Positions 12,387 through 32,435 are shown, counted from the stretch's first letter. The stretch is DNA of 64,000 nt from Rubrobacterales bacterium (GCA_038199875.1 JBBPYN010000076.1:7036-71035), one strand, 5' to 3'. The notes: generated by a model from the sequence alone, not told the origin. A program made the numbers and translations.

Positions 12387-13820
12387 TCACGCCAGCCCTG
12401 ACGCACCGACCAGCGCGGAGAGGGGGATGATGAGCAGGCCGAACAGCGTGGCGAGAACGGCCAGGATGTAGACGGAGAACCTGACGGCGCCACTCCCTTT
12501 CGACCTCACCGTCTCGGTCGTCGGCTCCTCGAGGACCATGTTGCGGATGATGCCGAAGTAGTAGGGGACGGAGAGGACCGTGTTGACGACGAGCGCCCCG
12601 ACGACGACGTAGACCAGGACAGAACCCGACTGGGCGCCCGCGATGATGATCCAGAGCTTCCCGAAGAACCCAGAGAGCGGGGGTATGCCGACTAGCGCGG
12701 CCATGAACAGGGCCATGCTAGCCGCCACGCCCGGGTTGGTCCTGACGAGCCCGTTATAGTTCTTGGCGTCCTCGCCGACGAGGTCTATGACGAGGAAGGC
12801 GCCCATGTTCATAACGGCGTAGGCCGCTGTGTAGATCAGGACCGCCTGCACGGCGAAAGCGACCCCTGCCCCCTGGAGCGCGGCGAATGCGGCCAGTATG
12901 TATCCCGAGTGGGCCACGGAGCTGTAGGCGAGCATCCGCCTGACGTTGCGCTGCCTGAGGGCGAAGAGGTTACCGACGAACATCGTGAGGATCGCGAGGA
13001 AGGCCATCACGGCGGTCCAGGTCGACGCCGCCTCAGGCATGCCTTCGAGGAGTATCCGAAGGAGTACCGCGAAGGTCGCGGCCTTCGGGCCGACCGACAG
13101 GAAGGCAGCCGCGCTCGTCGGGGCGCCCTGGTAGGCGTCGGGGGTCCAGAAGTGGAAGGGCGCGGCAGAGAGCTTGAAGGCGAAACCCGAGATCATCAAC
13201 ACGAGCCCGAGGACGGCGACCGGGGTGAGGTTGCCCGTGAACGTCTCGGCCACGTCAGAGAGCATCGCCGAGCCGGAGACGCCGTAGATCAGGACAAGCC
13301 CGTACAGGAGCACGGAGGAGGCGATGACGCCCGTGATCAGGTACTTCATCCCGCCCTCGGCGCTCTCGCGGCGGCTCCTGTCGAAGGCGACCATAGCGTA
13401 TGAAGGTATGGTCGCGAGCTCGATGGAGAGGAAGATGCCGAAGAGGTCACGCATGGAGACGAGCAGCGTCGCACCGAGCACGACGGAGAGGATGAGCGTC
13501 AGGTACTCAGGGCCGTCGCCAGTCTCGCCCGACCAGCGGGCAGCAGCCAGCACGGCGAAGAAGGCCGAGCCTGCGACTATCAGCTTGAAGTAAAGCGCGA
13601 AGCCGTCGACCACATAACCGCCGCCGAAGAAGCTGCCTGAGAAGCCCGTCGCGAGCAGGACGGCCGCGCTGGAGAAAACAGCCAGCGTCCCGAGGGCGGC
13701 AAGGCCTGCCGAGATACCGACGTTGCTCTCGCTAAAGGCTCCGACCATGAGGACCAGGATCACGAACCCCGTCGAGATCAGCTCGGGGAGAAGCGCGACG
13801 ATCGTTTGTCCCGTGACCAC
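12387..13820 (-). CDS. nuoN: Complex I subunit N
   Basis: SIELATIPSY, EGGMKYL, FKLSAAPFHFWTPDAYQGAPT, RMLAYSSVAHSGY. Confidence 0.95.
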   Translation of the reverse strand: MVTGQTIVALLPELISTGFVILVLMVGAFSESNVGISAGLAALGTLAVFSSAAVLLATGFSGSFFGGGYVVDGFALYFKLIVAGSAFFAVLAAARWSGETGDGPEYLTLILSVVLGATLLVSMRDLFGIFLSIELATIPSYAMVAFDRSRRESAEGGMKYLITGVIASSVLLYGLVLIYGVSGSAMLSDVAETFTGNLTPVAVLGLVLMISGFAFKLSAAPFHFWTPDAYQGAPTSAAAFLSVGPKAATFAVLLRILLEGMPEAASTWTAVMAFLAILTMFVGNLFALRQRNVRRMLAYSSVAHSGYILAAFAALQGAGVAFAVQAVLIYTAAYAVMNMGAFLVIDLVGEDAKNYNGLVRTNPGVAASMALFMAALVGIPPLSGFFGKLWIIIAGAQSGSVLVYVVVGALVVNTVLSVPYYFGIIRNMVLEEPTTETVRSKGSGAVRFSVYILAVLATLFGLLIIPLSALVGASGLA

Positions 13821-15274
13821 TAGCTACCCCCTATCACGGCCAGGATGGCGTCGACGGCCGGGCGTTGGATGCTTATGAGCAAGGCTGGGAAGACGCCGAG
13901 CACGACGAGCAGCAAGGCGAGCGGCACCAGGGAGGCCATCTCGGCCGGCCCCGCGTCGTCTATCTGCTCGTAGGCAGGGCTTTCGATGGGACCGAAGATC
14001 ACACGCGCCAGCATGTAAAGCAGGTACATGGCTGAGAGTATGATCCCGAACGACGCGAGCACCCCTTGAACCGGGAAAGTCGCGTACCCGCCCATGATGC
14101 TCATGAATTCGGAGACGAAGACGGCGAGCCCCGGAAGCCCCATCGCGGCGAGCGCGCCGAGGGCGAGGAGCCCACCGGCCCACGGCATCCTGGCAGCGAG
14201 CCCCCCGAGCTCGCTGATGCGGCGCGTCCCAGTCCTTGCCGCTATCACGCCGACAAGGATAAAGAGCAGCGCAGAGTAGAGACCGTGCGAGACCTGCTGG
14301 AAGACAGCACCGTTCAGGCCAACGGCGTTACTCGAGGCGGCCCCGAGCAGGATGAAGCCAAGGGTTCCAATTGATGAGTAGGCGACGAGCGCCTTCAGGT
14401 CTGGTTGAAGGAACGCGACGAACGACCCGTAGATAATGTTGATAACCCCGAAAGCGGCGAGGTAAGGGAGAAAAGGCTCGACGCCCTGCGGCAGAAGCGG
14501 GATCGCCACCTTGATAAGGCCGTACGTACCCAGCTTCGGCAGGACCCCCGAGAGAAGCACGTTGGTCGAGGTCGGGCTCGAGACGTACACGTCCAGAAGC
14601 CAACTGTGCAGCGGCACCGCGGGAACCTTGATCAGCAGCCCGAACAGTATCGGGGCCGCAACCGCGACCTGCGCCGCCCGAGAGAGGCCGCCCCCGCCCC
14701 CGAGTGAACTTATGGAGTAGGTGTCGGCGAGGATGCCGAAGGCAAGGAAGCCTGCCAGCATCACCGTCGAGCCGAGGAACGTGTAGATGAAGAACTTGAT
14801 CGCGGCAGGACGACGGTTCTCATCGCCCCAGACGCCGACGAGCAGATACATCGGGATCAGCGTGATCTCGAAGAACACGTAGAACAGGATCAGGTCCTGC
14901 GCAGCGAAGACGCCGAGCATCCCAACCTCGGCGACGAAGAGCGCGGCGAAGTACTGCCTGAGGTTACGGTTCACGTCCCCCGAAGCCACGATCGCTATGA
15001 CGGTGAGGAAGGTGGAGAGGAAGAACATCCCGAACCCGAGCCCGTCGAGCCCGACCCTGTAGCCTATGTTGAGCGACCGTATCCAGGTCAGGTCCTGAGT
15101 GAGGGCCGCGACGCCCAGATCATCGCCGAAGGCGAAGTAGATGTAGATCGCGAGGATCAGGGGCACGGCAGCCACCCCGAGGGCGGCGTAGCGCACGAGG
15201 CGCTCATCGTCGGGCAGGAGAAGCATGAGTACAGCGCCGAGAAGCGGGATCAGGATGGTCACCGTCGTTATCAC
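13820..15274 (-). CDS. nuoM: Complex I subunit M
   Basis: LFYVFFEITLIPMY, IKVPAVPLHSWL, KLGTYG, LPGLAVFVSEF. GTG at 15274 overlaps the nuoL TGA. Confidence 0.95.
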   Translation of the reverse strand: MITTVTILIPLLGAVLMLLLPDDERLVRYAALGVAAVPLILAIYIYFAFGDDLGVAALTQDLTWIRSLNIGYRVGLDGLGFGMFFLSTFLTVIAIVASGDVNRNLRQYFAALFVAEVGMLGVFAAQDLILFYVFFEITLIPMYLLVGVWGDENRRPAAIKFFIYTFLGSTVMLAGFLAFGILADTYSISSLGGGGGLSRAAQVAVAAPILFGLLIKVPAVPLHSWLLDVYVSSPTSTNVLLSGVLPKLGTYGLIKVAIPLLPQGVEPFLPYLAAFGVINIIYGSFVAFLQPDLKALVAYSSIGTLGFILLGAASSNAVGLNGAVFQQVSHGLYSALLFILVGVIAARTGTRRISELGGLAARMPWAGGLLALGALAAMGLPGLAVFVSEFMSIMGGYATFPVQGVLASFGIILSAMYLLYMLARVIFGPIESPAYEQIDDAGPAEMASLVPLALLLVVLGVFPALLISIQRPAVDAILAVIGGS

Positions 15275-17253
15275 AGGCGGGCCCCCACGGCGAAGGCGGC
15301 GATGGTTATCAGGGCTATGAGCCCGACGACGATCACCGCGTACTGCGCCCCTACGATTACCGCGATGATCAAGACGCTCAGCAGGATGAACAGGGCGTAG
15401 TTCTGGACCCCGCCGCTCTGCAGCCGCTGAAGAAGTCCCCCCGTCCCGAGCGTCCCGCGTCCGACCTCGCCGACCAGACCGCCGATGACGTTCCGGTCGA
15501 AGCCACGGGTAGCTCGTCCGAGCCACATCGCGAACCGCACGAACGTCGCGCCGTAGAGATCGTCGAAGTACCAGCCCTTGTCCAGGAACTTGTGAAGCCA
15601 CGAGAACCGTCTGGCGAGCGCCCCTGCCTGCTCCGGCCTCGCGACGTAGAGCGCGTAGGCCAGGCCAATCCCAAGGACCGCGACGAGGACCGAGACCCCG
15701 CCTAGCGCGTAGCTAAAGCCGTGCTCTTCGACGTTGAGCGTCGAGACGGCGAACTCGCTGGGATGCACGAACTCGGCGAAGTAATCAGGGATCGGGAGCC
15801 CGAACCCCTCTGGTATGCCCACCCACCCGCTCACGATAGATAGGAAGGCAAGGAGCATCATCGGGCCCGTCATTATCCCTGGCGACTCCGCCGCCTCCCT
15901 CGCCCCATCGGTACGAGGTTCGCCGGTAAAGGCGAGGAAGATAGCGCGGAAGATGTAGAAAGCCGTGAGGAACACCGTCAAGAGCGCCATGCCGAACAAG
16001 ACGTAGTAGTGCTCCTCGTAGGCCGAGGCGACGATGGCGTCCTTGGACCAGAACCCGGAGAAGGGGATGATCCCGGAGAGCGAGAGTCCCGCTATGACCA
16101 CCGCCACGAAGGTAAGAGGCATCTTCCGCCTGAGCCCCCCCATCTCGAAGAGGTTGTAGGAGTCCATCGCGTAGATGATGCTGCCGGCGCACAGGAAGAG
16201 GAGCGCCTTGAAGAAGGCGTGGTTGTAGAGGTGGAAGATGCCTGCTGAGTAAGAACCGATCCCGAGGCCTAGCATCATGTACCCGAGCTGGGAGACGGTG
16301 GAGTAGGCGATCACACGTTTGATGTCCTTCTTGACCAGCGCCATGGTCGCCGCCATCAGCGCGGTAAAGCCGCCGATGTAGGCGACGACGAGCATGGCCG
16401 TTGGGCTCTGCACGAAGATGTCGTAAGTGCGAGCAACGAGGTAGACACCAGCTGCGACCATGGTCGCCGCGTGGATCAGGGCGCTAACCGGCGTCGGGCC
16501 CTCCATCGCGTCGGGGAGCCATACGTGCAAGGGGAACTGCGCGCTCTTGCCTACGGCGCCGATGAAGACGAGGATCACGGCCGCCGTGAACAGGGAGCCG
16601 CCGATAAACCCGGCCTGGGCCGCCTCAGAGATGTCCGAGAAGGCTGTCGAGCCCGTCGTCGCCCAGAAGATGATGATCCCGACGAACAGCGCGGCATCCC
16701 CGACCCTGGTAACAACAAAGGCCTTGAGCGCGGCGTCGCGGGCAGAGGGCTTCTCGAACCAGTGCCCGACAAGCAGGTACGAGCACAGGCCGACGAGCTC
16801 CCAGAAGATGTAGAGTTGGATGAAGTTCGGGGCAAGCACGAGCCCGAGCATCGAGGCCGTAAACAGGTTGAGCACCGCGTAGAACCAGGCGAAGCGTTTG
16901 TCGCCCTCCATGAAAGCCCCTGAGTAGAGCTGGATCATGAGGCTCACGAAGCTCACCACCACGAGCATCACCGCGGCGAGCCCGTCGATAAGAACGCCCA
17001 TCGAGAACGAACCGCCCGCGCCGAGGTCTATCCAGTTCACGGAGAACTCTATTGGCGCCCCGCCGCCTGGGACTATCCCGGCCACGAACAGAAGGGCGAA
17101 GACGGAGAAGACGAGGGAGATAGTTACCCCGAGGATGGCCACGTACTGGGCGTTCTCCTTCAGGAGGCGTCCGAAGAAGACCAGCACGAGGAATACCAGC
17201 GCGGGGAGCGCCGGAATCGCCGTTATGATCAGCTGTTGGCCTACTGTCTGCAC
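15271..17253 (-). CDS. nuoL: Complex I subunit L
   Basis: WELVGLCSYLLVGHW, GKSAQFPLHVWLPDAMEGPTPVSALIHAATMVAAG, HAFFKALLFL. Confidence 0.96.
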   Translation of the reverse strand: MQTVGQQLIITAIPALPALVFLVLVFFGRLLKENAQYVAILGVTISLVFSVFALLFVAGIVPGGGAPIEFSVNWIDLGAGGSFSMGVLIDGLAAVMLVVVSFVSLMIQLYSGAFMEGDKRFAWFYAVLNLFTASMLGLVLAPNFIQLYIFWELVGLCSYLLVGHWFEKPSARDAALKAFVVTRVGDAALFVGIIIFWATTGSTAFSDISEAAQAGFIGGSLFTAAVILVFIGAVGKSAQFPLHVWLPDAMEGPTPVSALIHAATMVAAGVYLVARTYDIFVQSPTAMLVVAYIGGFTALMAATMALVKKDIKRVIAYSTVSQLGYMMLGLGIGSYSAGIFHLYNHAFFKALLFLCAGSIIYAMDSYNLFEMGGLRRKMPLTFVAVVIAGLSLSGIIPFSGFWSKDAIVASAYEEHYYVLFGMALLTVFLTAFYIFRAIFLAFTGEPRTDGAREAAESPGIMTGPMMLLAFLSIVSGWVGIPEGFGLPIPDYFAEFVHPSEFAVSTLNVEEHGFSYALGGVSVLVAVLGIGLAYALYVARPEQAGALARRFSWLHKFLDKGWYFDDLYGATFVRFAMWLGRATRGFDRNVIGGLVGEVGRGTLGTGGLLQRLQSGGVQNYALFILLSVLIIAVIVGAQYAVIVVGLIALITIAAFAVGARL

Positions 17254-17263
17254 GGGTTCCCCT

Positions 17264-17623
17264 CTAGCCTCTCATCGAGGTTACTTCGTCGACGTTCACG
17301 GTGCGCCGCGAGCGGAACACGGCGAGCACTATAGCAAGTCCAACGGCGATCTCAGCCGCCGCTATGGCGATCACAAGCACCGCGTAGCTGACCCCGAGGC
17401 CACCGGCACCCGGAAGATAGTCGGCGAAGGCGACCAGCGTCAGGTTGACGCCGTTTATCATAAGCTCCACACACATGAAGATGACGACGGCGTTGCGCCG
17501 GATCAGAGCCCCCCACGCCCCGATGGCGAACAGGATCGCCCCGACGACGAGGTAACCCTCAAGCGGCGGCGCGGAGACGAGAGCGTCGAGAAACTGCTGC
17601 ACCTGGCTAGGCATCTGGGGCAT
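17264..17623 (-). CDS. nuoK: Complex I subunit K
   Basis: FMCVELMINGVNL, AAAEIAVGLAI. Confidence 0.94.
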   Translation of the reverse strand: MPQMPSQVQQFLDALVSAPPLEGYLVVGAILFAIGAWGALIRRNAVVIFMCVELMINGVNLTLVAFADYLPGAGGLGVSYAVLVIAIAAAEIAVGLAIVLAVFRSRRTVNVDEVTSMRG

Positions 17624-18159
17624 TACTCGCGCACCCCCCGGTCGACGCCCTCCCCCATCTTGCGGCGGCTCACGACGATCGCCGCGACGACGGCCACGAG
17701 GAGCAGCACCGAGGCGACCTCGAAGAGCAGGGTGAAGATCTCAGCCCCCTGGCTCACACCTAGCAGGTCCCGCCCGAAAGCTCCGACCTCGCGCGGCCCG
17801 TTCCCGGCCTTCACTCCAGCCCAGTCTTCGGCGGCGAGCACGTACGCGAGGAAGAGTCCGACGCCTATGGCCACGAGGAAGCCAGGCCAGAACTGGCGGT
17901 TAATGATCGTACGGTATCGCCTGACCTGCGGCTTCTGGGTGAACATGATGCCGAACAGGATCACCACCGTTACGGCGCCGACGTAGATGAGGACCTGGAA
18001 CGCGGCGAACGCAGGGGCGTTCAGCATCACGAAGTACCCGGAGATGCCGAGGAATGACCCTGACATAAACAGCGCCGAATGCACGACGCTGCGGCTCAAA
18101 ACCACCCCGAGCGCCGAGACGAGCGTCATCCCGGCCAGGAAAACGAACGCGGCCGTCAA
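17623..18159 (-). CDS. nuoJ: Complex I subunit J
   Basis: FQVLIYVGAVTVVILFGIM, FEVASVLLL. Confidence 0.93.
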   Translation of the reverse strand: MTAAFVFLAGMTLVSALGVVLSRSVVHSALFMSGSFLGISGYFVMLNAPAFAAFQVLIYVGAVTVVILFGIMFTQKPQVRRYRTIINRQFWPGFLVAIGVGLFLAYVLAAEDWAGVKAGNGPREVGAFGRDLLGVSQGAEIFTLLFEVASVLLLVAVVAAIVVSRRKMGEGVDRGVRE

Positions 18160-18665
18160 GCTGCTTCGTCCCCGGTTCTGGGTTGCTCCACGGTCTTGGG
18201 AGCCTTCTTGCCTGTTGGTTTTTTCTTCTTTTTCACGGTTGGCTTGGGGTCAACGGTCGGGTCGACTGGACGCTCGCCGAACTGCCTGGCCAGTTCAAGG
18301 CGGTTGTAGGCCTGCGCCTCGAACTCCTCGGTGTGGTAGATGCAGTTGACCGGGCAGACCTCGACGCAAAGCGAGCAGTACATGCAGCGCGAGTCGTCGA
18401 TCACGAACCCGATAGGATAAGGCTTCGGTTTGCCTGACCCGTCGGCGTCGCGCTTGGTCTGCTCGATCGAGATGCAGTGGTCCGGGCAGATCCTCATGCA
18501 CTGCAAACAAGCGATGCAGCGGTCCATGTCGACCGTAAGCATCCCGCGGCTCCGTTCTGGGAGGTCGCGTTTGTACTCGGGGTACTGGCGTGTGATCTTC
18601 TGCCCGAAGAGGTGCCTCAAGGTCACCCCCATCCCCTTCATAATGCCCTGTCCGACTTGTGGCAT
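18156..18665 (-). CDS. nuoI: Complex I subunit I (2x[4Fe-4S]) with Lys-rich C-terminal tail
   Basis: CIACLQCMRICP and CMYCSLCVEVCP; GGAGG RBS 5 nt before the ATG at 18665. Confidence 0.95.
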   Translation of the reverse strand: MPQVGQGIMKGMGVTLRHLFGQKITRQYPEYKRDLPERSRGMLTVDMDRCIACLQCMRICPDHCISIEQTKRDADGSGKPKPYPIGFVIDDSRCMYCSLCVEVCPVNCIYHTEEFEAQAYNRLELARQFGERPVDPTVDPKPTVKKKKKPTGKKAPKTVEQPRTGDEAA

Positions 18666-18674
18666 CAAAACCTC

Positions 18675-19676
18675 CTAGAAAATCAGTATCGCGCCGGCCG
18701 TGACGAACAGCCAGATCAGGGTTGCGGGGACGAGTATCTTCCAGCCGAGGTCCATGAGCTGGTCCATCCTGAGGCGGGGCACGCTCCACCTTATCCACTG
18801 GAAGGTGAACATGATCAGCGCCGTCTTGATCCCGAACCAGACCCAGTTGAAGTGCCCGAGGTCGAGGAAGGGAAGCGGCGGCTGCCAGCCGCCAATGAAG
18901 AGCGTGACGGTGATCGCCGACATGACGGCCATCGAGGCGAACTCGGCGGCCTGTATGAGGGCCCAGGTCATCCCCGAGTACTCGACCATGAAGCCGCCCA
19001 CGATCTCGCTCTCCCCTTCAGGCAGGTCGAAAGGAACCCGCTTTACCTCGGCGAGCCCCGAGATGTAGAAGGTTATGAACATCGGGAGCTGAGGCAGGAA
19101 GTACCAGGTCCAGATCGTATCCCCCTGCGCCTCGACCACGTCCGCGAGCGAGAGGCTTCCAGTAAGCATAACTACGCCGAGGAGGCTCAGGATCAGGGGC
19201 ACTTCATAAGAGATCATCTGCGCGGCCCCGCGCAGTGCGCCAAGCAGCGAGAACGCGGAGCGGCTCCCGTAGCCGGCCATAACGACGCCGAGAGCTCCTA
19301 TGGAGGTTATCGCGACGAAGAACAGTATCGCGACGTTGAGGTCGGCGACGACCGCGTCTGGGGCGAAAGGTACGACCAGCCACACGAGCGCGGCCGGTAT
19401 GAACATGGCTATCGGCGCCCCGAGGAAGACCCAGAAGTCCGACCTTCCGGGCGCGACGTTCTCTTTGGAGAACAGCTTGAAGACGTCGGCCGCCGGCTGC
19501 AGAAGACCGCGCGGCCCGACCCTGTTCGGGCCGAAGCGGAGGTGGATGTATCCAGAGACCTTCCTCTCGGCCATCGTCAGGACGGCGGCGAGGTTGAGCA
19601 CGAGGAAGAGGACAGCCCCGAAGGAGATGAGCAGCCGTATCGGCTCCATTTCCAGTAGGTTGAGGACAGTCTGCAT
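18675..19676 (-). CDS. nuoH: Complex I subunit H
   Basis: AERKVSG...RFGPNRVGP.GLLQP.AD..K, RGAAQMISYE, PFDLPEGESE, PRLRMDQLM. Confidence 0.96.
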   Translation of the reverse strand: MQTVLNLLEMEPIRLLISFGAVLFLVLNLAAVLTMAERKVSGYIHLRFGPNRVGPRGLLQPAADVFKLFSKENVAPGRSDFWVFLGAPIAMFIPAALVWLVVPFAPDAVVADLNVAILFFVAITSIGALGVVMAGYGSRSAFSLLGALRGAAQMISYEVPLILSLLGVVMLTGSLSLADVVEAQGDTIWTWYFLPQLPMFITFYISGLAEVKRVPFDLPEGESEIVGGFMVEYSGMTWALIQAAEFASMAVMSAITVTLFIGGWQPPLPFLDLGHFNWVWFGIKTALIMFTFQWIRWSVPRLRMDQLMDLGWKILVPATLIWLFVTAGAILIF

Positions 19677-20864
19677 CTACTTGTCCCACCCGCCGGAGAC
19701 GGGGTCCACGAGGCCCATGATCGGCATGATGTCAGGCAGGTAATGTCCAGGCACTATCTCCTGCAAGAGCTGCATGTTGCAGAAGCTCGGGTCGCGGTAA
19801 TGGACCCTGTAAGGGGTGTCCGAGCCGTCAGAGACGACGTGGACGGCGTACTCGCCGCGCGGGCTCTCCACCCTGCCGAAGCCCTCGCCCTCGGCTGGCC
19901 TTATGCGGCGGCCCGTGTCCCCCATGACCTCGCCCTCGGGCATCTGCTCGAGGCACTGTTTGATCAGGCGTATGCTCTGCAGACACTCCGCTATGCGCAC
20001 CCTGTAAGAAGCCTCGACGTCGCCAGCCGTGTCCGTGATGACCTCGAACTCCAGCTCGGGATACACGCTGTAGGGATAGTCGAGCCTGATGTCGAAGTCC
20101 ACGCCCGTGCAGCGCAGGGCTGGGCCGGTCACACCCATCTCGACGGCCTGCTCCTGGGTCATATTCCCAACGTTTCGGGTGCGTGAGATAAAGATCTCAT
20201 TCCCCGCAATAAGGTCAACGAAGTCCCTCTGGAAGTGGTCCTCGAGGCTCTCGATGTAGTCCCAGATCTTCTGGGGTATATCGGGCGGCAAATCGGCCTT
20301 GACGCCGCCTATCCTGATGTAGTGATACATCATCCGTGCGCCTGTTACGGCCTCGAAGATGGACTGTATGCGCTCCCTCTCGCGGAAGGCGTAGAGGATC
20401 GGGGTGAAGGCCCCGAGCTCGAGCATGAGGAAACCGATGGAGGGGATGTGGCTCGCGAGCCGCATGAGCTCGCACATGAGCACGCGGATGTACTCGGCCC
20501 TCGGTGGTATCTCGACGTCGAGTAAATCTTCGACCGCTAGCACGTAGCCGTGCTCGTTGTGCATGTTGGCGAAGTAGTCGAGCCTGTCCGTCAGCGGGAT
20601 GACCGCCGGATACATGCGGTTCTCGGCGATCTTCTCCTGACAGCGGTGCAGATATCCCATCACGGGGTCGCACCTCACGACGGTCTCGCCGTCGAGCTCC
20701 AGGATGAGCCTGAGAAGCCCGTGCATCGCGGGGTGCTGGGGCCCCATGTTCATGTCTATGGTCTCTAGCCCGAACTCGTCCCTGATGTCGGGGCTTACCA
20801 GGCGGCTGCTCGCGGGCTCGGTGAGCGCGCCCTCGTGGTGTGCGCGGCGTTCTTCGCTAAGCAT
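19677..20864 (-). CDS. nuoD: Complex I subunit D
   Basis: [31 protein letters not shown]. No NiFe-binding CxxC pairs. Confidence 0.95.
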
Positions 20865-20868
20865 AACC

Positions 20869-21360
20869 CTACCTCAGTCCCTCGAAGGTGCGCTTGGTGC
20901 TGATCTCGAAGCTCTTGAGCAGCGGGTGGTGGTCGAAGTGGTCCTGCCACATGTACGTCCTGCGCAGGTCGGGATGACCCGCGAAGGCCACACCGAACAT
21001 GTCGTAGGCCTCCCTCTCGTGCCAGTTCGCCGTGGGGTAACTCTTGGTTGCGGTCCCGATCACAGGCTCATCACCCTTGATGGTAGTCTTGACCCTGACG
21101 CTGGCTCCCCTGAAATCCATGAGCTCATAAGTCAGCTCGAAAGACCCCTGTCTGTCCACGACCGTGATAAACGAGAGGTGCGGGATGCCTAAAGCCTCGC
21201 GCGCGGTCGCGAGCACGGCAGGCACGTCGCCTGGAAGGGCGACGACCAGCACCACGTTATCCATGATCTCCGACTCTTCCAGGCCGTGCCTGTTGTTGAA
21301 GCCATCCAGGTAGCGTTGAAGCCGGGTCTGGAGATCCCCCTCCGGCAACGAGAGGGCCAC
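20869..21360 (-). CDS. nuoC: Complex I subunit C (short)
   Basis: [24 protein letters not shown]...HPLLK. Confidence 0.93.
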
Positions 21361-22134
21361 CTAGGCGTTCTCCTTGTTCTCTTTGCCGTTGGCCGAACCG
21401 TTCTCGGCGGCCTCGGCTTCAGCGGCCTTCTTCGCCCTCGCCTCTTCCTTGAGCCTCTTCTTCACTTCTGGCGGGACCCAGCCGACGTCGGTCTGGGAGG
21501 CCGGCGGCATGCCAGCGCGCTCGAAGACGTAGGTCCGCTTTAGCGGACGGATGCCTTCGAGCCTGGGGGCCTTGCCCTCGCTGATCTCGGTGTACTCCCG
21601 CTCGGGCAGGTACTCGTTGATGGTGCCGTCCTCGTCGACGAGCGCGGGACGCGGCCTCTCATAGCCGACCTGCTGGTCGCGTTCTATCTTCTTCTGGAGC
21701 GTCATGATCCCGAAGATGAGCGCCTCGGGACGCGGTGGGCATCCGGGCACGTACACGTCTACGGGTATAACCCTGTCGGCCCCCATAAGCACCGAGTACC
21801 CGTCAAGGAAGGGGCCGCCCGAGATCGCACACGCACCCATCGCTATGACCCATTTGGGCTCAGGCATCTGCTCGTAGAGGCGGGTCATCCGCTCTGCCAT
21901 CTTGGTAGAGACGGTGCCCGAGACGATCATGACATCAGCCTGCCTGGGCGAGGCCGCGAAGAAGCCGGCGCCGAAGCGGTCGAGGTCGTTGTGGGCCATG
22001 CCTGTGGACATCATCTCTATCGCGCAACAGGCAAGGCCGAACTGGAGCGGCCACAGCGAGTTCTTGCGGGCCCAGTTGAAGAGCTTGTCCGTGCTCGTTG
22101 TGATGATGTTAGGCTCGTTGAACTGCTGCATCAC
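21361..22134 (-). CDS. nuoB: Complex I subunit B with ~100-aa C-terminal extension
   Basis: [35 protein letters not shown]. Confidence 0.95.
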
Positions 22135-22481
22135 ACCCATTTAAGGGCCCCCTTCTTCCAGGCGTAGATCAAACCGACGGCCAGGATCGAGACGAAAATG
22201 ACCATCTCGACGAAACCGTAGACACCGAGGCTCTTGTAGATGACGGCCCAGGGATAGAGGAAGGCCGCCTCCACGTCGAAGACGAGGAAGAGCAGCGCGA
22301 AGACGTAATAGCGGACGGGGAAGGGACGCCAAGGGTCCGTGACCGTCATCTCGCCCGTCTCGTAGTTCTGCGCCTTGGTGCTCGACCTCCGACTGGGTGA
22401 GATAAGCCGCGCCAGAACCAGCGTGGTCGCCACGAAACCCGTGATCAGCAACATGAAGATCCCCACGTAGAGGTACACCAT
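22131..22481 (-). CDS. nuoA: Complex I subunit A
   Basis: [37 protein letters not shown]. Confidence 0.95.
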
Positions 22482-22717
22482 CCCGTAAGATGCTTCCTGT
22501 TGCAATAGACCTAGCGCCAAAACCAGCCTTTCTACCCAATAACCAACCGAAATATACCCTCGCAAGCAGCAACTTTCAAGAAGCTACTAGCAGTAGCAAG
22601 CTACTAACAACAGCACGCTCTGGCCTACGACGCCGTGCTGACAAGCCGTCCGCAGGGCGGTGTGCTTACATGTTAGACTGCTTTTCGGGTTCTACGGCAT
22701 TGACAAAGGGAGAGCGT

Positions 22718-22981
22718 GTGGCTTACGTGATAACGGAAGCTTGTATCGGGACGAAGAACACGGCCTGTGTCGGGGCCTGTCCTGTTGACTGCATCTACGA
22801 CGCCGGCGACCACTTCATAATCAACCCCGCGGAGTGCATCGACTGCTCCATGTGCATGCCGGAGTGTCCGGTTGAGGCCATCTACCCCGGTGACGAGGTC
22901 CCTGAGGACATGCAGTACTACGTGAGCCGGGCCGCCGAGTTCGACTACTCGAACACCGCGCCTGGCGTCGAAGTCAATTAG
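22718..22981 (+). CDS. 7Fe-type dicluster ferredoxin ([3Fe-4S]+[4Fe-4S], FdxA-like)
   Basis: C-x7-C-x3-CP (CIGTKNTACVGACP) and CIDCSMCMPECP; GGGAG RBS before the GTG at 22718. Confidence 0.9.
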   Translation: MAYVITEACIGTKNTACVGACPVDCIYDAGDHFIINPAECIDCSMCMPECPVEAIYPGDEVPEDMQYYVSRAAEFDYSNTAPGVEVN

Positions 22982-23008
22982 CCGGACGACTCTTTAGGGC
23001 GGGGGATC

Positions 23009-24169
23009 ATGGCCGATTTAAAGCAACGCAGCCTCGAAGAAGTCAAGGCCTTGAGCGTCGATGAGGCCGTGGAGATCATACGCCAGGCTGGTATCGTCGG
23101 CGCTGGGGGCGGTGGTTTCCCGACTTACTTCAAATACAAGTCCCCCCTGCCGCACCTGCTCGTGAACGCAACCGAAAGCGAACCAGGTTACTGGGGAGAC
23201 AAGCTCGTACACAAGGAGAACCTCGAGGAGTTCCTCCAGGTCTTCGATGCCCTGAAGGCGATCTTCGGCTTCGAGCAGATCTCCTTCTGCGTCCACGAGA
23301 AGGACAGGGAGTGGTTCGCCGGGTACGCCGAGCACTCGGGCGAGGGCGTCTTCGACGTTCGCTACGTGCCAAACACGTACGCCCTTGGCGAGGAGAAGAC
23401 CCTGGTCAAGCACGCGACCGAGACCAGGGTGCCCAGGTTCGTGGACAACCCGGACGGGAGTAGGCGCCCCGGGATGCCGCCTGACGTCGGCAAGGTCGTC
23501 AACAATACGGAGTCTCTGCTCAACGTCTACAACGCGCTCTTCCTCGGCAAGCCCCTCACCACCAAGTTCTTCACCGTGTACGGCGAGGAGGTTGACACGA
23601 AGGTCTTCGAAGTGCCGATCGGCGCCTCGGTGAGCGAGGTACTGGGGATCGCGGGCCTAAACGTGGAGAACTCAGGTCACCTCACGGTCCTTGACGGCGG
23701 GCCATACCTGCACGATGTGAGCATCGCGGAGCTTGGTACTGGAGACGCCTACGTGAGGCGGATGACCAACTCCTTGTTCGTGATCCCACATGGCAGGCAG
23801 GGTAAGGAGTACGCCGAGATCGAGACAGAGTGCCCGGAGGAAGGCATCGTCTCCCTGGTCGGCAAGATCTCGGGCGTAAATCTGCCCCTCGGCGGCGGTC
23901 TGCTGAAACCGGCCACGCCGCTCATCTCCGGGGGCGACGAGGTTGAGTACGAACAGAAGATAGGAGAGCCCGTCGACGATGGCTTCTCCGTCGGGGTCTG
24001 GGCGAGTATTGGGGGTGAGATCTCCTCCATGGAGAACGGCATCGTCGCCATCTCCGGTGGCGCGATAGCCAAGGAAGAGGCCGAGGCAGAAGCCGAGCCG
24101 TCCATGGCCGGCGGCTCGCAACCGCGGGGAGAGGCTGAGCCATTCAGCGAGGCCGGATCGAGTAAGTGA
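23009..24169 (+). CDS. RnfC/PduS/NuoF-like flavoprotein (FMN/NADH domain + SLBB + C-terminal barrel-sandwich) without Fe-S motif
   Basis: AGIVGAGGGGFPT, NATESEP, YALGEE, VNNTESL, VPIG (SLBB), GGP, C-terminal VGVWASIGGEI. Only two Cys. Confidence 0.75.
   Translation: MADLKQRSLEEVKALSVDEAVEIIRQAGIVGAGGGGFPTYFKYKSPLPHLLVNATESEPGYWGDKLVHKENLEEFLQVFDALKAIFGFEQISFCVHEKDREWFAGYAEHSGEGVFDVRYVPNTYALGEEKTLVKHATETRVPRFVDNPDGSRRPGMPPDVGKVVNNTESLLNVYNALFLGKPLTTKFFTVYGEEVDTKVFEVPIGASVSEVLGIAGLNVENSGHLTVLDGGPYLHDVSIAELGTGDAYVRRMTNSLFVIPHGRQGKEYAEIETECPEEGIVSLVGKISGVNLPLGGGLLKPATPLISGGDEVEYEQKIGEPVDDGFSVGVWASIGGEISSMENGIVAISGGAIAKEEAEAEAEPSMAGGSQPRGEAEPFSEAGSSK

Positions 24170-28232: not shown

Positions 28233-28233
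<1 letters not shown>
27781..28233 (-). CDS. atpC: ATP synthase epsilon subunit
   Basis: VITPE...GDLGVLVDHSPLVS...GFFKV; last gene of the atp operon. Confidence 0.92.
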
Positions 28234-29966
<1,733 letters not shown>

Positions 29967-30833: not shown

Positions 30834-32435
30834 CTAGCTCCCCTCTTCCTCGCCGTTTTCTTGCTCGGAGCCGTCCTCTTCCTCCGGGGATACGCCTGCG
30901 AGGCTCGTCTGCTCGGGCTCGAAGTTGGAGTTGAAGTTCTCCGCGGCCTCCTTGAGCTTCTCCTCGTTCTCGTCGGAGAGCTGCTGTTCGGAGCGGATCG
31001 TATCGAGCAGGTCGCCGTGGGTGTCGCGCATAAAGTCGCGGAACTGCCGCTCCCAGTCAGGGACGGCGCCGGTGTCTACGTCGTCCAGGTAGCCGTTAGA
31101 CGCGGCGTAGAGGACCACGACCTGCTCCTCGACCGGCATGGGGTCGCGCTCGTCCTGCTTCAGGATCGCCGTCAGGCGTTCGCCACGGTTCAGCGTCTGC
31201 TGCGTCGCCTTGTCCAGGTCGCTCCCGAACTGGGCGAAGCTCGCGAGCTCGCGGTACTGGTTCAGGTCCAGACGCAAGGTGCCTGCGACATCCTTCATGG
31301 CTTTGATCTGGGCCGAGGAGCCCACGCGGCTCACGGAGTTGCCCGTGTCGATGGCGGGGCGCTGGCCCGAGTTGAAGAGGTCGGAGTCAAGGAAGATCTG
31401 GCCGTCCGTGATGGAGATGACGTTGGTCGGGATGTAAGCCGAGATGTCGCCGGCCTTGGTCTCGATGACAGGCAACGCCGTGAGAGACCCGCCCCCTGCA
31501 TCTTCCGAGAGCTTGGCCGCACGCTCCAGAAGGCGGGAGTGCAAATAGAAGACGTCGCCAGGATACGCCTCGCGGCCCGGCGGGCGCCGGAGTAGAAGCA
31601 TCATCTGACGGTAGGCGACGGCGTGCTTGGAGAGGTCGTCGTAGATCAGGAGCGAGTCCTCGCCACGGTTCATGAAGAACTCGCCGATGGCGCAACCAGC
31701 GTAAGGAGCCAGGTACTGCAGCGTCGCTGACTGGGCCGCAGAGGCGTTCACGACGGTGGTGAACTCCAGGGCGCCGGTCTCCTCGAGGGCGGAGACGACG
31801 CCTGCTACCGTCGAGTCCTTCTGACCGATAGCGACGTAGACGCACTTCACGTCCTGGTCGGCCTGGTTGATGATGGTGTCGAGTAGGATCGAGGTCTTGC
31901 CCGTCTTCCTGTCTCCGATGACCAGTTCTCGCTGTCCGCGTCCGATCGGGATCATGGCGTCTATGGCCTTGATGCCGGTCTGGAGCGGCTGCTTGACCGG
32001 CTGGCGCCTGATGATGCCTGGCGCCACGATCTCTACGGGAAGCGTCTGCTCCGCCTCGATCTCACCCTTACCGTCGATCGGCCGCCCGAGGGCGTCGATG
32101 ACGCGGCCGAGCACCCCCTCGCCGACGGGAACGCTCGCGAGGCGTTCGGTGCGCGTTACCGTGTTTCCTTCCTGGATGTGGGTATCGTCGCCGGCGACGA
32201 TGACGCCGACGTTGTCCTCCTCCAGGTTCAGCGCGAGCCCCGTGATCTTCTCTCCCCTGGAGTCCTCGAACTCAAGCATCTCCTGGTACATCGCGTTGGT
32301 AAGGCCGTGGACGCGCGCGATGCCGTCCCCGACCTCGAGTACCTGCCCGACCTCCTCGGTCCTGACGCGGTTCTCGTAATCCGTAATAGCGCCTTTTAGA
32401 ATGGAGGAGATCTCCTCCGGCCTGAGCCTGCCCAC
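30834..32435 (-). CDS. atpA: ATP synthase alpha subunit
   Basis: [46 protein letters not shown]. Confidence 0.97.

Follow-up and report, generated by a model that had tools for sequence, protein, structure and literature searches.

Gene arrangement at the locus

The window, by which we mean the whole 64-kb stretch of DNA analyzed here, carries a ferredoxin gene and a flavoprotein gene in tandem, divergently oriented from a complex I operon.

12387 to 22482, minus strand: nuoABCDHIJKLMN operon, 11 genes, with no nuoE, nuoF, or nuoG (open reading frames; a Pfam match for every subunit; identical gene order in L123)
18156 to 18668, minus strand: nuoI, encoding the 2x[4Fe-4S] subunit, whose C-terminal tail is rich in Lys; proposed site of ferredoxin electron entry (Pfam Fer4; alignment with the relocated nuoI described below)
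22483 to 22717, no strand: divergent nuoA/ferredoxin intergenic region, 235 bp (sequence)
22579 to 22551, minus strand: sigma-70-like site for nuo, TTGAAA-17-TATATT (a single match, to the consensus only)
22718 to 22981, plus strand: gene for a 7Fe ferredoxin of the FdxA type, 87 aa, GTG start (Cys pattern; solved 7Fe relatives; FdxA models score best, below cut-off)
22982 to 23008, plus strand: spacer of 27 bp between the ferredoxin and flavoprotein genes (CCGGACGACTCTTTAGGGCGGGGGATC), with a G-rich ribosome-binding site (direct reading)
23009 to 24169, plus strand: gene for an rnfC/pduS-like flavoprotein of 386 aa that lacks an Fe-S domain (open reading frame; Pfam Complex1_51K and RnfC_N, no Fer4; RnfC and NuoF as top sequence and fold matches)

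The 11 complex I genes are contiguous and nuoEFG are absent from the operon, both here and in L123, a locus of a complete 3.2-Mb genome. A scan of about 40 open reading frames in the window returned nuo, atp, murA, secA, prfA/B, rho, argS, citrate synthase, and similar housekeeping genes. As a first-pass annotation of this DNA had stated, no pdu, eut, or other rnf genes were among them, and microcompartment genes were likewise not found. A tblastn search of the 64 kb found no second NuoF/RnfC-like gene. The ferredoxin most likely starts at the GTG at 22718, giving 87 aa, and not at 22490; its stop codon ends at 22981, at the distance from the flavoprotein gene originally noted.

Domain architecture of the flavoprotein

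We divided the 386-aa protein into the following parts.

23078 to 23530, plus strand: FMN/NADH-binding Rossmann-like domain, aa 24 to 174 (Pfam PF01512, 92.9 bits; motifs GAGGGGFP, NATESEPG, GEEK, and VNNTES)
23561 to 23728, plus strand: SLBB (beta-grasp) domain, about aa 185 to 240 (weak Pfam match; aligned to the RnfC SLBB region; AlphaFold2 elements)
23729 to 23845, plus strand: short linker, about aa 241 to 279, in place of the roughly 100-aa 2x[4Fe-4S] insert of PduS/RnfC (judged by length against PduS-type relatives)
23846 to 24058, plus strand: C-terminal barrel-sandwich hybrid domain, aa 280 to 350 (Pfam RnfC_N; match to RnfC residues 33 to 83; pLDDT 92 to 97)
24068 to 24166, plus strand: disordered acidic C-terminal tail, aa 354 to 386 (pLDDT below 50; kept among nuoA-linked orthologs)

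This order of FMN/NADH domain, SLBB domain, and C-terminal barrel is the one proposed in the first-pass annotation, and Pfam, alignments to RnfC, and an AlphaFold2 model agree on it. In Pfam, the Complex1_51K match is well above its cut-off of 31.2 bits (E 2.4e-26), the SLBB match is weak (aa 188 to 216, E 0.049), and the RnfC_N barrel-sandwich match (aa 291 to 346, 25.0 bits) falls just under a cut-off of 25.6 that homologs pass. Apart from its final 33 residues, the AlphaFold2 model, which drew on 32 relatives, is confident (pLDDT 85.9, pTM 0.86); the beta-grasp and barrel elements are of high confidence, and the beta-beta-alpha-beta-beta elements of the SLBB domain have a pLDDT above 90. 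Foldseek, a comparison that had been suggested for this protein, placed RnfC first (8rbq_C, E 1.8e-17) and NuoF next, and RnfC chains were also the best sequence matches among solved structures (7zc6_C, E 1e-23). Residues 13 to 234 match RnfC 116 to 331 and residues 290 to 341 match RnfC 33 to 83, and thus the barrel is C-terminal here and N-terminal in RnfC. Overall, there is very little doubt about the architecture and family assignment of the flavoprotein.

The iron-sulfur domain is missing, as first described: a Pfam scan of the protein gave zero Fer4-family matches, and the only two Cys residues, Cys94 and Cys275, are both variable in the family alignment. RnfC and a PduS-type relative (P0160) have ECEP where the flavoprotein, also as first read, has ESEP within NATESEPG; we take this to be the NuoF-like state of the motif and not a degeneration. 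Fourteen residues are invariant in 32 family members (G31, A32, G33, G34, G36, F37, P38, E56, E58, P59, G127, E129, N166, and E168), covering the flavin/nicotinamide motifs GAGG(A/G)GFP, ExEP, the G-E of the GEE motif, and the N-x-E of NNTE, and the FMN-domain motif residues align with those of RnfC. These motifs suggest that the protein binds flavin and functions as a soluble FMN-dependent NAD(P)H dehydrogenase.

The acidic tail (...EEAEAEAEP.MAGGSQPRGEAEPF.EAGSS) is kept in orthologs at 84 to 90% identity. We considered lipoyl or biotinyl modification of the barrel and rejected it on the ground that the hairpin Lys varies among family members.

Comparison with RnfC, PduS, NuoF, and PrdC

NCBIfam ranked the RnfC, PrdC, RsxC, and NuoF models first for the flavoprotein, all far under their cut-offs. 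The RnfC model TIGR01945 scored 119 bits against a cut-off of 245.95, the PrdC model TIGR04481 scored 99.1 against 490, and the NuoF model TIGR01959 scored 28.1 against 558.65, with aa 12 to 70 alone aligned. No rnfABDEG genes were found in the window or in related loci, and no prd genes, the context of proline reductase, were seen.

The flavoprotein and RnfC, which binds NADH within the Rnf ferredoxin:NAD+ oxidoreductase, have FMN/NADH motifs, an SLBB domain, and a barrel domain in common, and both would join NAD(H) to ferredoxin. However, RnfC begins with the barrel, followed by the FMN domain, the SLBB domain, and, at the C terminus, a 2x[4Fe-4S] domain, whereas the flavoprotein ends with the barrel and has no Fe-S domain. 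PduS serves as cobalamin reductase in the microcompartments for propanediol utilization. PduS-type proteins are the closest sequence relatives after the flavoprotein's own family, and the two share the order of NuoF-type FMN/NADH domain, SLBB domain, and barrel-sandwich domain. The C-terminal barrel of PduS given in the first-pass annotation is correct (PMC1796856) and is also seen in P0160. Unlike PduS, the flavoprotein lacks the insert of about 100 aa with two [4Fe-4S] clusters between SLBB and barrel and has a linker of about 40 aa with no CxxCxxCxxxC motif where PduS-type relatives have about 100 aa or more; it also reads ESEP in place of ECEP, falls in a separate clade, and has no microcompartment or cobalamin context.

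With NuoF/Nqo1, the 51-kDa subunit of the N module, the flavoprotein shares the FMN/NADH fold and motifs, including ExEPG, and a proposed role in which NADH oxidation would feed the cluster chain of complex I. In contrast to NuoF, it has no C-terminal four-helix N3 [4Fe-4S] domain, no cluster ligands, and no NuoE or NuoG partners, and it would require a diffusible or docked ferredoxin in place of the built-in wire. By these comparisons the protein falls outside RnfC, PduS, NuoF, and PrdC, and its sequence is best described as representing a distinct, uncharacterized sister family of PduS/RnfC that lacks the Fe-S domain (FeS-less).

Distribution of the FeS-less family

An exhaustive HMMER search recovered full-length relatives of 330 to 370 aa, at 35 to 42% identity, with matching architecture and no Fe-S domain. 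The same search recovered many PduS-type proteins of 430 to 450 aa with CxxCxxCxxxC motifs between SLBB and barrel. A profile of the distant FeS-less members matched over 2,000 proteins; they belong to Thermoplasmatota, Bipolaricaulia, and numerous Haloarchaea, the last including Haloterrigena turkmenica, Halogeometricum borinquense, a Haloferax mediterranei plasmid, and Natronomonas. Database names for these proteins include "NADH dehydrogenase subunit," "51 kDa subunit," "RnfC," and "proton-conducting membrane transporter," and our literature search found no description of the FeS-less flavoprotein family or of its link to nuo. In a scan of metagenomes with the family profile, most hits were PduS-type genes with Fe-S motifs, and about five loci were FeS-less.

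In a neighbor-joining tree of the FMN and SLBB core, constructed without bootstrap values, the FeS-less proteins of Rubrobacteraceae, Thermoplasmatota, Haloarchaea, and Bipolaricaulia group together in a single clade, and the PduS-type and RnfC-type proteins fall in clades of their own. Based on its wide spread, its single clade, and its invariant cofactor motifs, the family is old and conserved, looks catalytically intact, and is not a recent truncation.

Proteins nearly identical to the one in the window come from Rubrobacteraceae (Actinomycetota) of soil and desert metagenomes. The DNA sequencing runs that carry the locus are from soil, biocrust, and rock metagenomes only; among RNA runs, none carrying it were found. 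Separately, 11-subunit complex I is listed in actinobacteria, Halobacteriales, and Thermoplasmatales (PMC3144371), and these are lineages where the FeS-less family was found.

The co-encoded ferredoxin

The ferredoxin has Cys residues at positions 9, 17, 21, 25, 40, 43, 46, and 50. All but Cys25, which is additional, form the pattern C-x7-C-x3-CP ... C-x2-C-x2-C-x3-CP, as in ferredoxins with one [3Fe-4S] and one [4Fe-4S] cluster; for the assignment of individual ligands to clusters, we assume that the established Thermus and Azotobacter 7Fe structures apply. The protein can be aligned end to end with 7Fe ferredoxins of Thermus and Azotobacter, and the solved structures closest to it are those of Thermus thermophilus (1h98, E 1e-24), Azotobacter vinelandii (FdI), Bacillus schlegelii (1bc6), and Mycobacterium smegmatis (2v2k). 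The NCBIfam FdxA models were the top matches but stayed below their cut-offs: the Actino model scored 84.3 bits (cut-off 125) and the Proteobacteria model 81.8 (cut-off 135). The ferredoxin is shorter at its C terminus. With the cluster insert of PduS it has one CxxCxxCxxxCP motif of 12 residues in common and nothing more. Judged by sequence, the protein is an ordinary 7Fe ([3Fe-4S][4Fe-4S]) ferredoxin of the FdxA type and not a detached PduS cluster domain.

The gap between the ferredoxin and flavoprotein genes is 23 to 27 bp in the window and in L122, L123, L124, and L126, and the two genes are paired in every nuo-linked ortholog, including those in which the pair has moved to another site. 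A 474-aa open reading frame in L016 that looked like a fusion of the two proteins is a frame artifact, with the two genes in different frames. Most relatives from outside the Rubrobacteraceae lack a neighboring ferredoxin gene (Haloterrigena, the H. mediterranei plasmid, two Thermoplasmatota contigs, and others). One Bipolaricaulia relative adjoins a gene for a 2x[4Fe-4S] ferredoxin, with no nuo genes nearby. Two Thermoplasmatota relatives adjoin a gene for an Fe-type alcohol dehydrogenase, a position reminiscent of the pduQ-pduS arrangement. Within the Rubrobacteraceae, a second, more basal paralog clade at 59 to 66% identity stands alone, with neither ferredoxin nor nuo genes nearby.

The first-pass annotation had proposed a PduS/RnfC-type enzyme split in two, with the ferredoxin supplying the clusters in trans. 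The second part of this proposal holds up well: the tight gap, the pairing in every nuo-linked ortholog, and the survival of relocation make the ferredoxin a very plausible partner. It is probably the redox partner of the flavoprotein and would provide the Fe-S centers in trans. The split fails as an evolutionary history, because most relatives have no ferredoxin nearby and the ferredoxin is of an ordinary 7Fe type.

Linkage to complex I

All orthologs at 70 to 90% identity, including the one in L123, share the order nuo (minus strand), ferredoxin (plus strand), flavoprotein (plus strand), M20 peptidase, murA, and atp. In Rubrobacter xylanophilus DSM 9941, Rubrobacter taiwanensis, and four metagenome-assembled contigs, the ferredoxin-flavoprotein pair occupies another site, where it immediately follows a full-length nuoI on the same strand. 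The NuoI encoded there has 183 aa and is 80% identical to NuoI of the window; its N-terminal region is kept, and its tail carries a 13-aa insertion. The flanks of this three-gene block vary by genome (narGH/Crp/hemerythrin/ScdA; leu/ilv; G6PD/GH15). In a neighbor-joining tree of the Rubrobacteraceae proteins, the nuoI-linked clade nests within the nuoA-linked clade, indicating that the nuoI-linked proteins are the same orthologs after a relocation in which a nuo neighbor was kept.

Linkage to nuo is restricted to the Rubrobacteraceae, a single family. Nearly all distant members of the FeS-less family are away from nuo, and most are away from any ferredoxin gene. Part of the nuo adjacency may also be inherited, since murA and atp synteny is equally conserved in the Rubrobacteraceae. 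A published genome comparison found no nuoE, nuoF, or nuoG homologs in Rubrobacter radiotolerans (PMC6741124); the supplements of two complex I surveys had no Rubrobacter content.

Ferredoxin as an electron donor to an 11-subunit complex I has a precedent in cyanobacterial NDH-1 (PMC7021789). NDH-1 likewise has an 11-subunit core without NuoEFG and receives electrons from ferredoxin at the NdhI side (PMC7021789, PMC8433477). The two systems differ in their ferredoxins: that of NDH-1 is a plant-type 2Fe-2S protein, reduced by photosystem I and docked through NdhS/V/O, whereas the Rubrobacteraceae candidate is a 7Fe protein that would be reduced by an NAD(P)H flavoprotein.

Proposed electron transfer pathway

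Nothing about the locus is more informative than its link to an 11-subunit nuo operon that has no nuoEFG. We propose that NAD(P)H binds at the NuoF-type site and passes a hydride to FMN, as the invariant motifs suggest. FMN would then deliver single electrons to the [3Fe-4S] and [4Fe-4S] clusters of the co-encoded ferredoxin, a step suggested by gene pairing at operon distance that survives relocation. In the Rubrobacteraceae the two genes would be co-transcribed, with the ferredoxin as the one-electron partner. Electrons would next be exchanged between the ferredoxin and the chain of NuoI/NuoB clusters in the complex I without NuoEFG; here we infer the contact from the two independent nuo linkages, the reported absence of NuoEFG, and the cyanobacterial precedent. 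Electrons could run in either direction, from NADH through ferredoxin to quinone or from ferredoxin to NAD+, and the pair would serve as a detachable substitute for the N module or as a hub for NAD(H)/ferredoxin exchange at complex I.

Our confidence differs among the parts of this pathway. The full chain, an FMN-dependent NAD(P)H:ferredoxin oxidoreductase whose ferredoxin is linked to NuoI of the 11-subunit complex I, draws on sequence and gene order, and we consider the odds that it is correct to be about even. Electron delivery or coupling to Nuo, taken by itself, is a possibility that we place slightly below even. More tentative is the proposal that the pair is the missing NADH-oxidizing input module of the Rubrobacteraceae complex, a two-protein, detachable functional analogue of NuoEFG with NuoI as its docking site. 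Both proteins are acidic, with a predicted pI of 4.6 for the flavoprotein and 4.05 for the ferredoxin, which we count against a flavoprotein-ferredoxin-Nuo route. The [3Fe-4S] clusters of some 7Fe ferredoxins have potentials near -420 mV, and reduction by NADH would then be uphill.

Alternative explanations

The main alternative is an NAD(P)H:ferredoxin oxidoreductase that is free-standing, with no functional tie to complex I and with a position beside nuo that reflects inherited synteny. Such an enzyme would keep the 7Fe ferredoxin reduced (or oxidized) for other users, for example 2-oxoacid:ferredoxin oxidoreductases, P450s, or the repair and assembly of Fe-S clusters. It would account for the tight and conserved ferredoxin pairing, and it fits the murA/atp synteny, the Bipolaricaulia relative next to a 2x[4Fe-4S] ferredoxin gene, and the R. 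xylanophilus-type block, which lies near ScdA, FeS_assembly_P, further ferredoxins, hemerythrins, and narGH. However, the relocated pair sits beside a full-length nuoI in every genome of its clade despite differing flanks, which is hard to explain without a tie to NuoI. We regard this alternative as rather unlikely, and the remaining ones as less likely still.

If the flavoprotein were a general NADH diaphorase or oxidase, acting on quinone, oxygen, or another small acceptor, the ferredoxin gene next to it would be incidental. Most family members are indeed stand-alone genes, among them the haloarchaeal ones and the second Rubrobacteraceae paralog, but members of the window protein's clade invariably have the ferredoxin gene at operon distance, and on relocation the two genes travel together; we find a diaphorase improbable.

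Literal fission of a PduS/RnfC-type enzyme, with the ferredoxin as its detached 2x[4Fe-4S] domain and the products reassembling, would explain why the Fe-S domain is missing exactly at its PduS position and why a ferredoxin gene lies so close. Against it, the FeS-less proteins are an old group that is mostly without ferredoxin pairing, the ferredoxin is an FdxA homolog that shares a single short motif with the insert, and its gene lies upstream and not at the position of the missing insert. The evolutionary part of this idea is largely refuted, and fission as a whole is very improbable.

Least probable of all, and only barely credible, is a PduS-like corrinoid reductase that uses FMN alone to pass electrons from NADH to cob(III)alamin or cob(II)alamin: the protein has the PduS domain order, the SLBB domain of PduS is proposed to bind cobalamin (PMC1796856), and two relatives lie beside an Fe-type alcohol dehydrogenase gene, but no cobalamin, pdu, eut, or microcompartment genes turned up in the window or in any of the approximately 20 related loci inspected, and the family is separate from PduS-type proteins in the tree.

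Implications for complex I without an N module

The FeS-less family is large, uncharacterized, and mislabeled in databases, and it presents a NuoF-type flavin site without a built-in iron-sulfur exit wire. Its members in Haloarchaea and Thermoplasmatota, where complexes without an N module also occur, might have related roles. Such 11-subunit complexes are common in bacteria and archaea, and their electron donor outside the cyanobacteria is an open question: a dedicated search by Moparthi and Hagerhall found no designated donor partner (PMC3144371), and a 2024 paper restated the question as open (PMC11238625). Because the flavoprotein gene in this clade of the Rubrobacteraceae is always accompanied by the ferredoxin gene, and the two stay tied to nuo genes of a complex I lacking NuoEFG, the pair is a testable candidate for the input device missing from that complex. 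Rubrobacter is a cultivable aerobic lineage, and a gene pair that has remained tied to nuo through rearrangement would make the donor question accessible to direct experiment.

Annotation and genomic context of flavoprotein relatives

NCBI annotates soluble relatives of the PduS/RnfC-like flavoprotein as "proton-conducting membrane transporter", and other sources call them "RnfC" (proteins P0037, P0040, P0059, P0137, and P0392). Given the architecture of the flavoprotein, both names are misleading for the family.

Within the Rubrobacteraceae, the clade in which the ferredoxin-flavoprotein gene pair is relocated behind nuoI has a conserved gene order, AhpC/TSA-like (-), nuoI-like (+), ferredoxin (+), and flavoprotein (+). 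R. xylanophilus, R. taiwanensis, and related MAGs share this order at the following loci:

L122, 9065-11167
L124, 9035-11158
L126, 2578-5043
L127, 5785-8250
L016, 8955-11161
L019, 2294-4759

In R. xylanophilus, the nuoI-ferredoxin-flavoprotein block adjoins narGH, narK, and genes for a Crp-family regulator, hemerythrins, ScdA, and an FeS-assembly protein. A second paralog clade (59-66% identity) is encoded by stand-alone genes surrounded by polysaccharide and lipid genes, with no adjacent ferredoxin gene. Some MAGs carry both flavoprotein copies (L014 with L025; L010 with L021). Loci of this second clade are as follows:

L017, 10001-11104
L027, 10001-11119
also L020 and L022-L025

Among the distant archaeal relatives, an iron-type alcohol dehydrogenase gene adjoins the flavoprotein gene in two Thermoplasmatota-type contigs (L034, 8001-10201; L040, 5628-8014), overlapping in an operon in one and divergent in the other. 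This pairing recalls the pduQ-pduS neighborhood. In several haloarchaeal relatives (P0343, P0344, P0357, and P0365), the C terminus is extended by a segment with the pattern CxxC...CxxC, such as YWTWCEECGEYI...YVCEDCA; this segment could be a zinc ribbon or rubredoxin-like metal site.

The nuo-murA-atp neighborhood and charged protein tails

The nuo operon, which encodes an 11-subunit complex I, lies near murA and the atp operon (window 12387-32435). An 11-subunit nuo operon has been described in the same murA/atp neighborhood in Bacillus cereus-group genomes (PMC3144371), and this shared proximity suggests that the nuo-murA-atp synteny is very old.

Long charged tails, unusual in length, recur among the proteins of this region. 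In the ATP synthase alpha/beta region (ORFs at window 28233-29951 and 30834-32435), the beta ORF has an extended N terminus and a long acidic repeat tail, and an acidic tail is also present at the end of the alpha subunit.

Tails were likewise found on two complex I subunits and the flavoprotein:

21361-22140, minus strand, nuoB (product of 259 aa; Pfam domain ends at aa 147)
18156-18668, minus strand, nuoI (product with a Lys-rich C-terminal tail)
24068-24166, plus strand, disordered acidic tail at the flavoprotein C-terminal end, EEAEAEAEPSMAGGSQPRGEAEPFSEAGSSK

NuoB extends about 110 aa past its Pfam domain and ends in a Lys/Glu/Ala-rich tail, while the NuoI tail, KKKKKPTGKKAPK, is kept across Rubrobacteraceae. 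The acidic flavoprotein tail is kept in orthologs whose ferredoxin-flavoprotein pair is divergent from nuoA, whereas the stand-alone paralogs and members of the nuoI-linked clade have a shorter tail or one that differs. Speculatively, the acidic ferredoxin, or else the flavoprotein tail, could dock at the basic tails of NuoB and NuoI.
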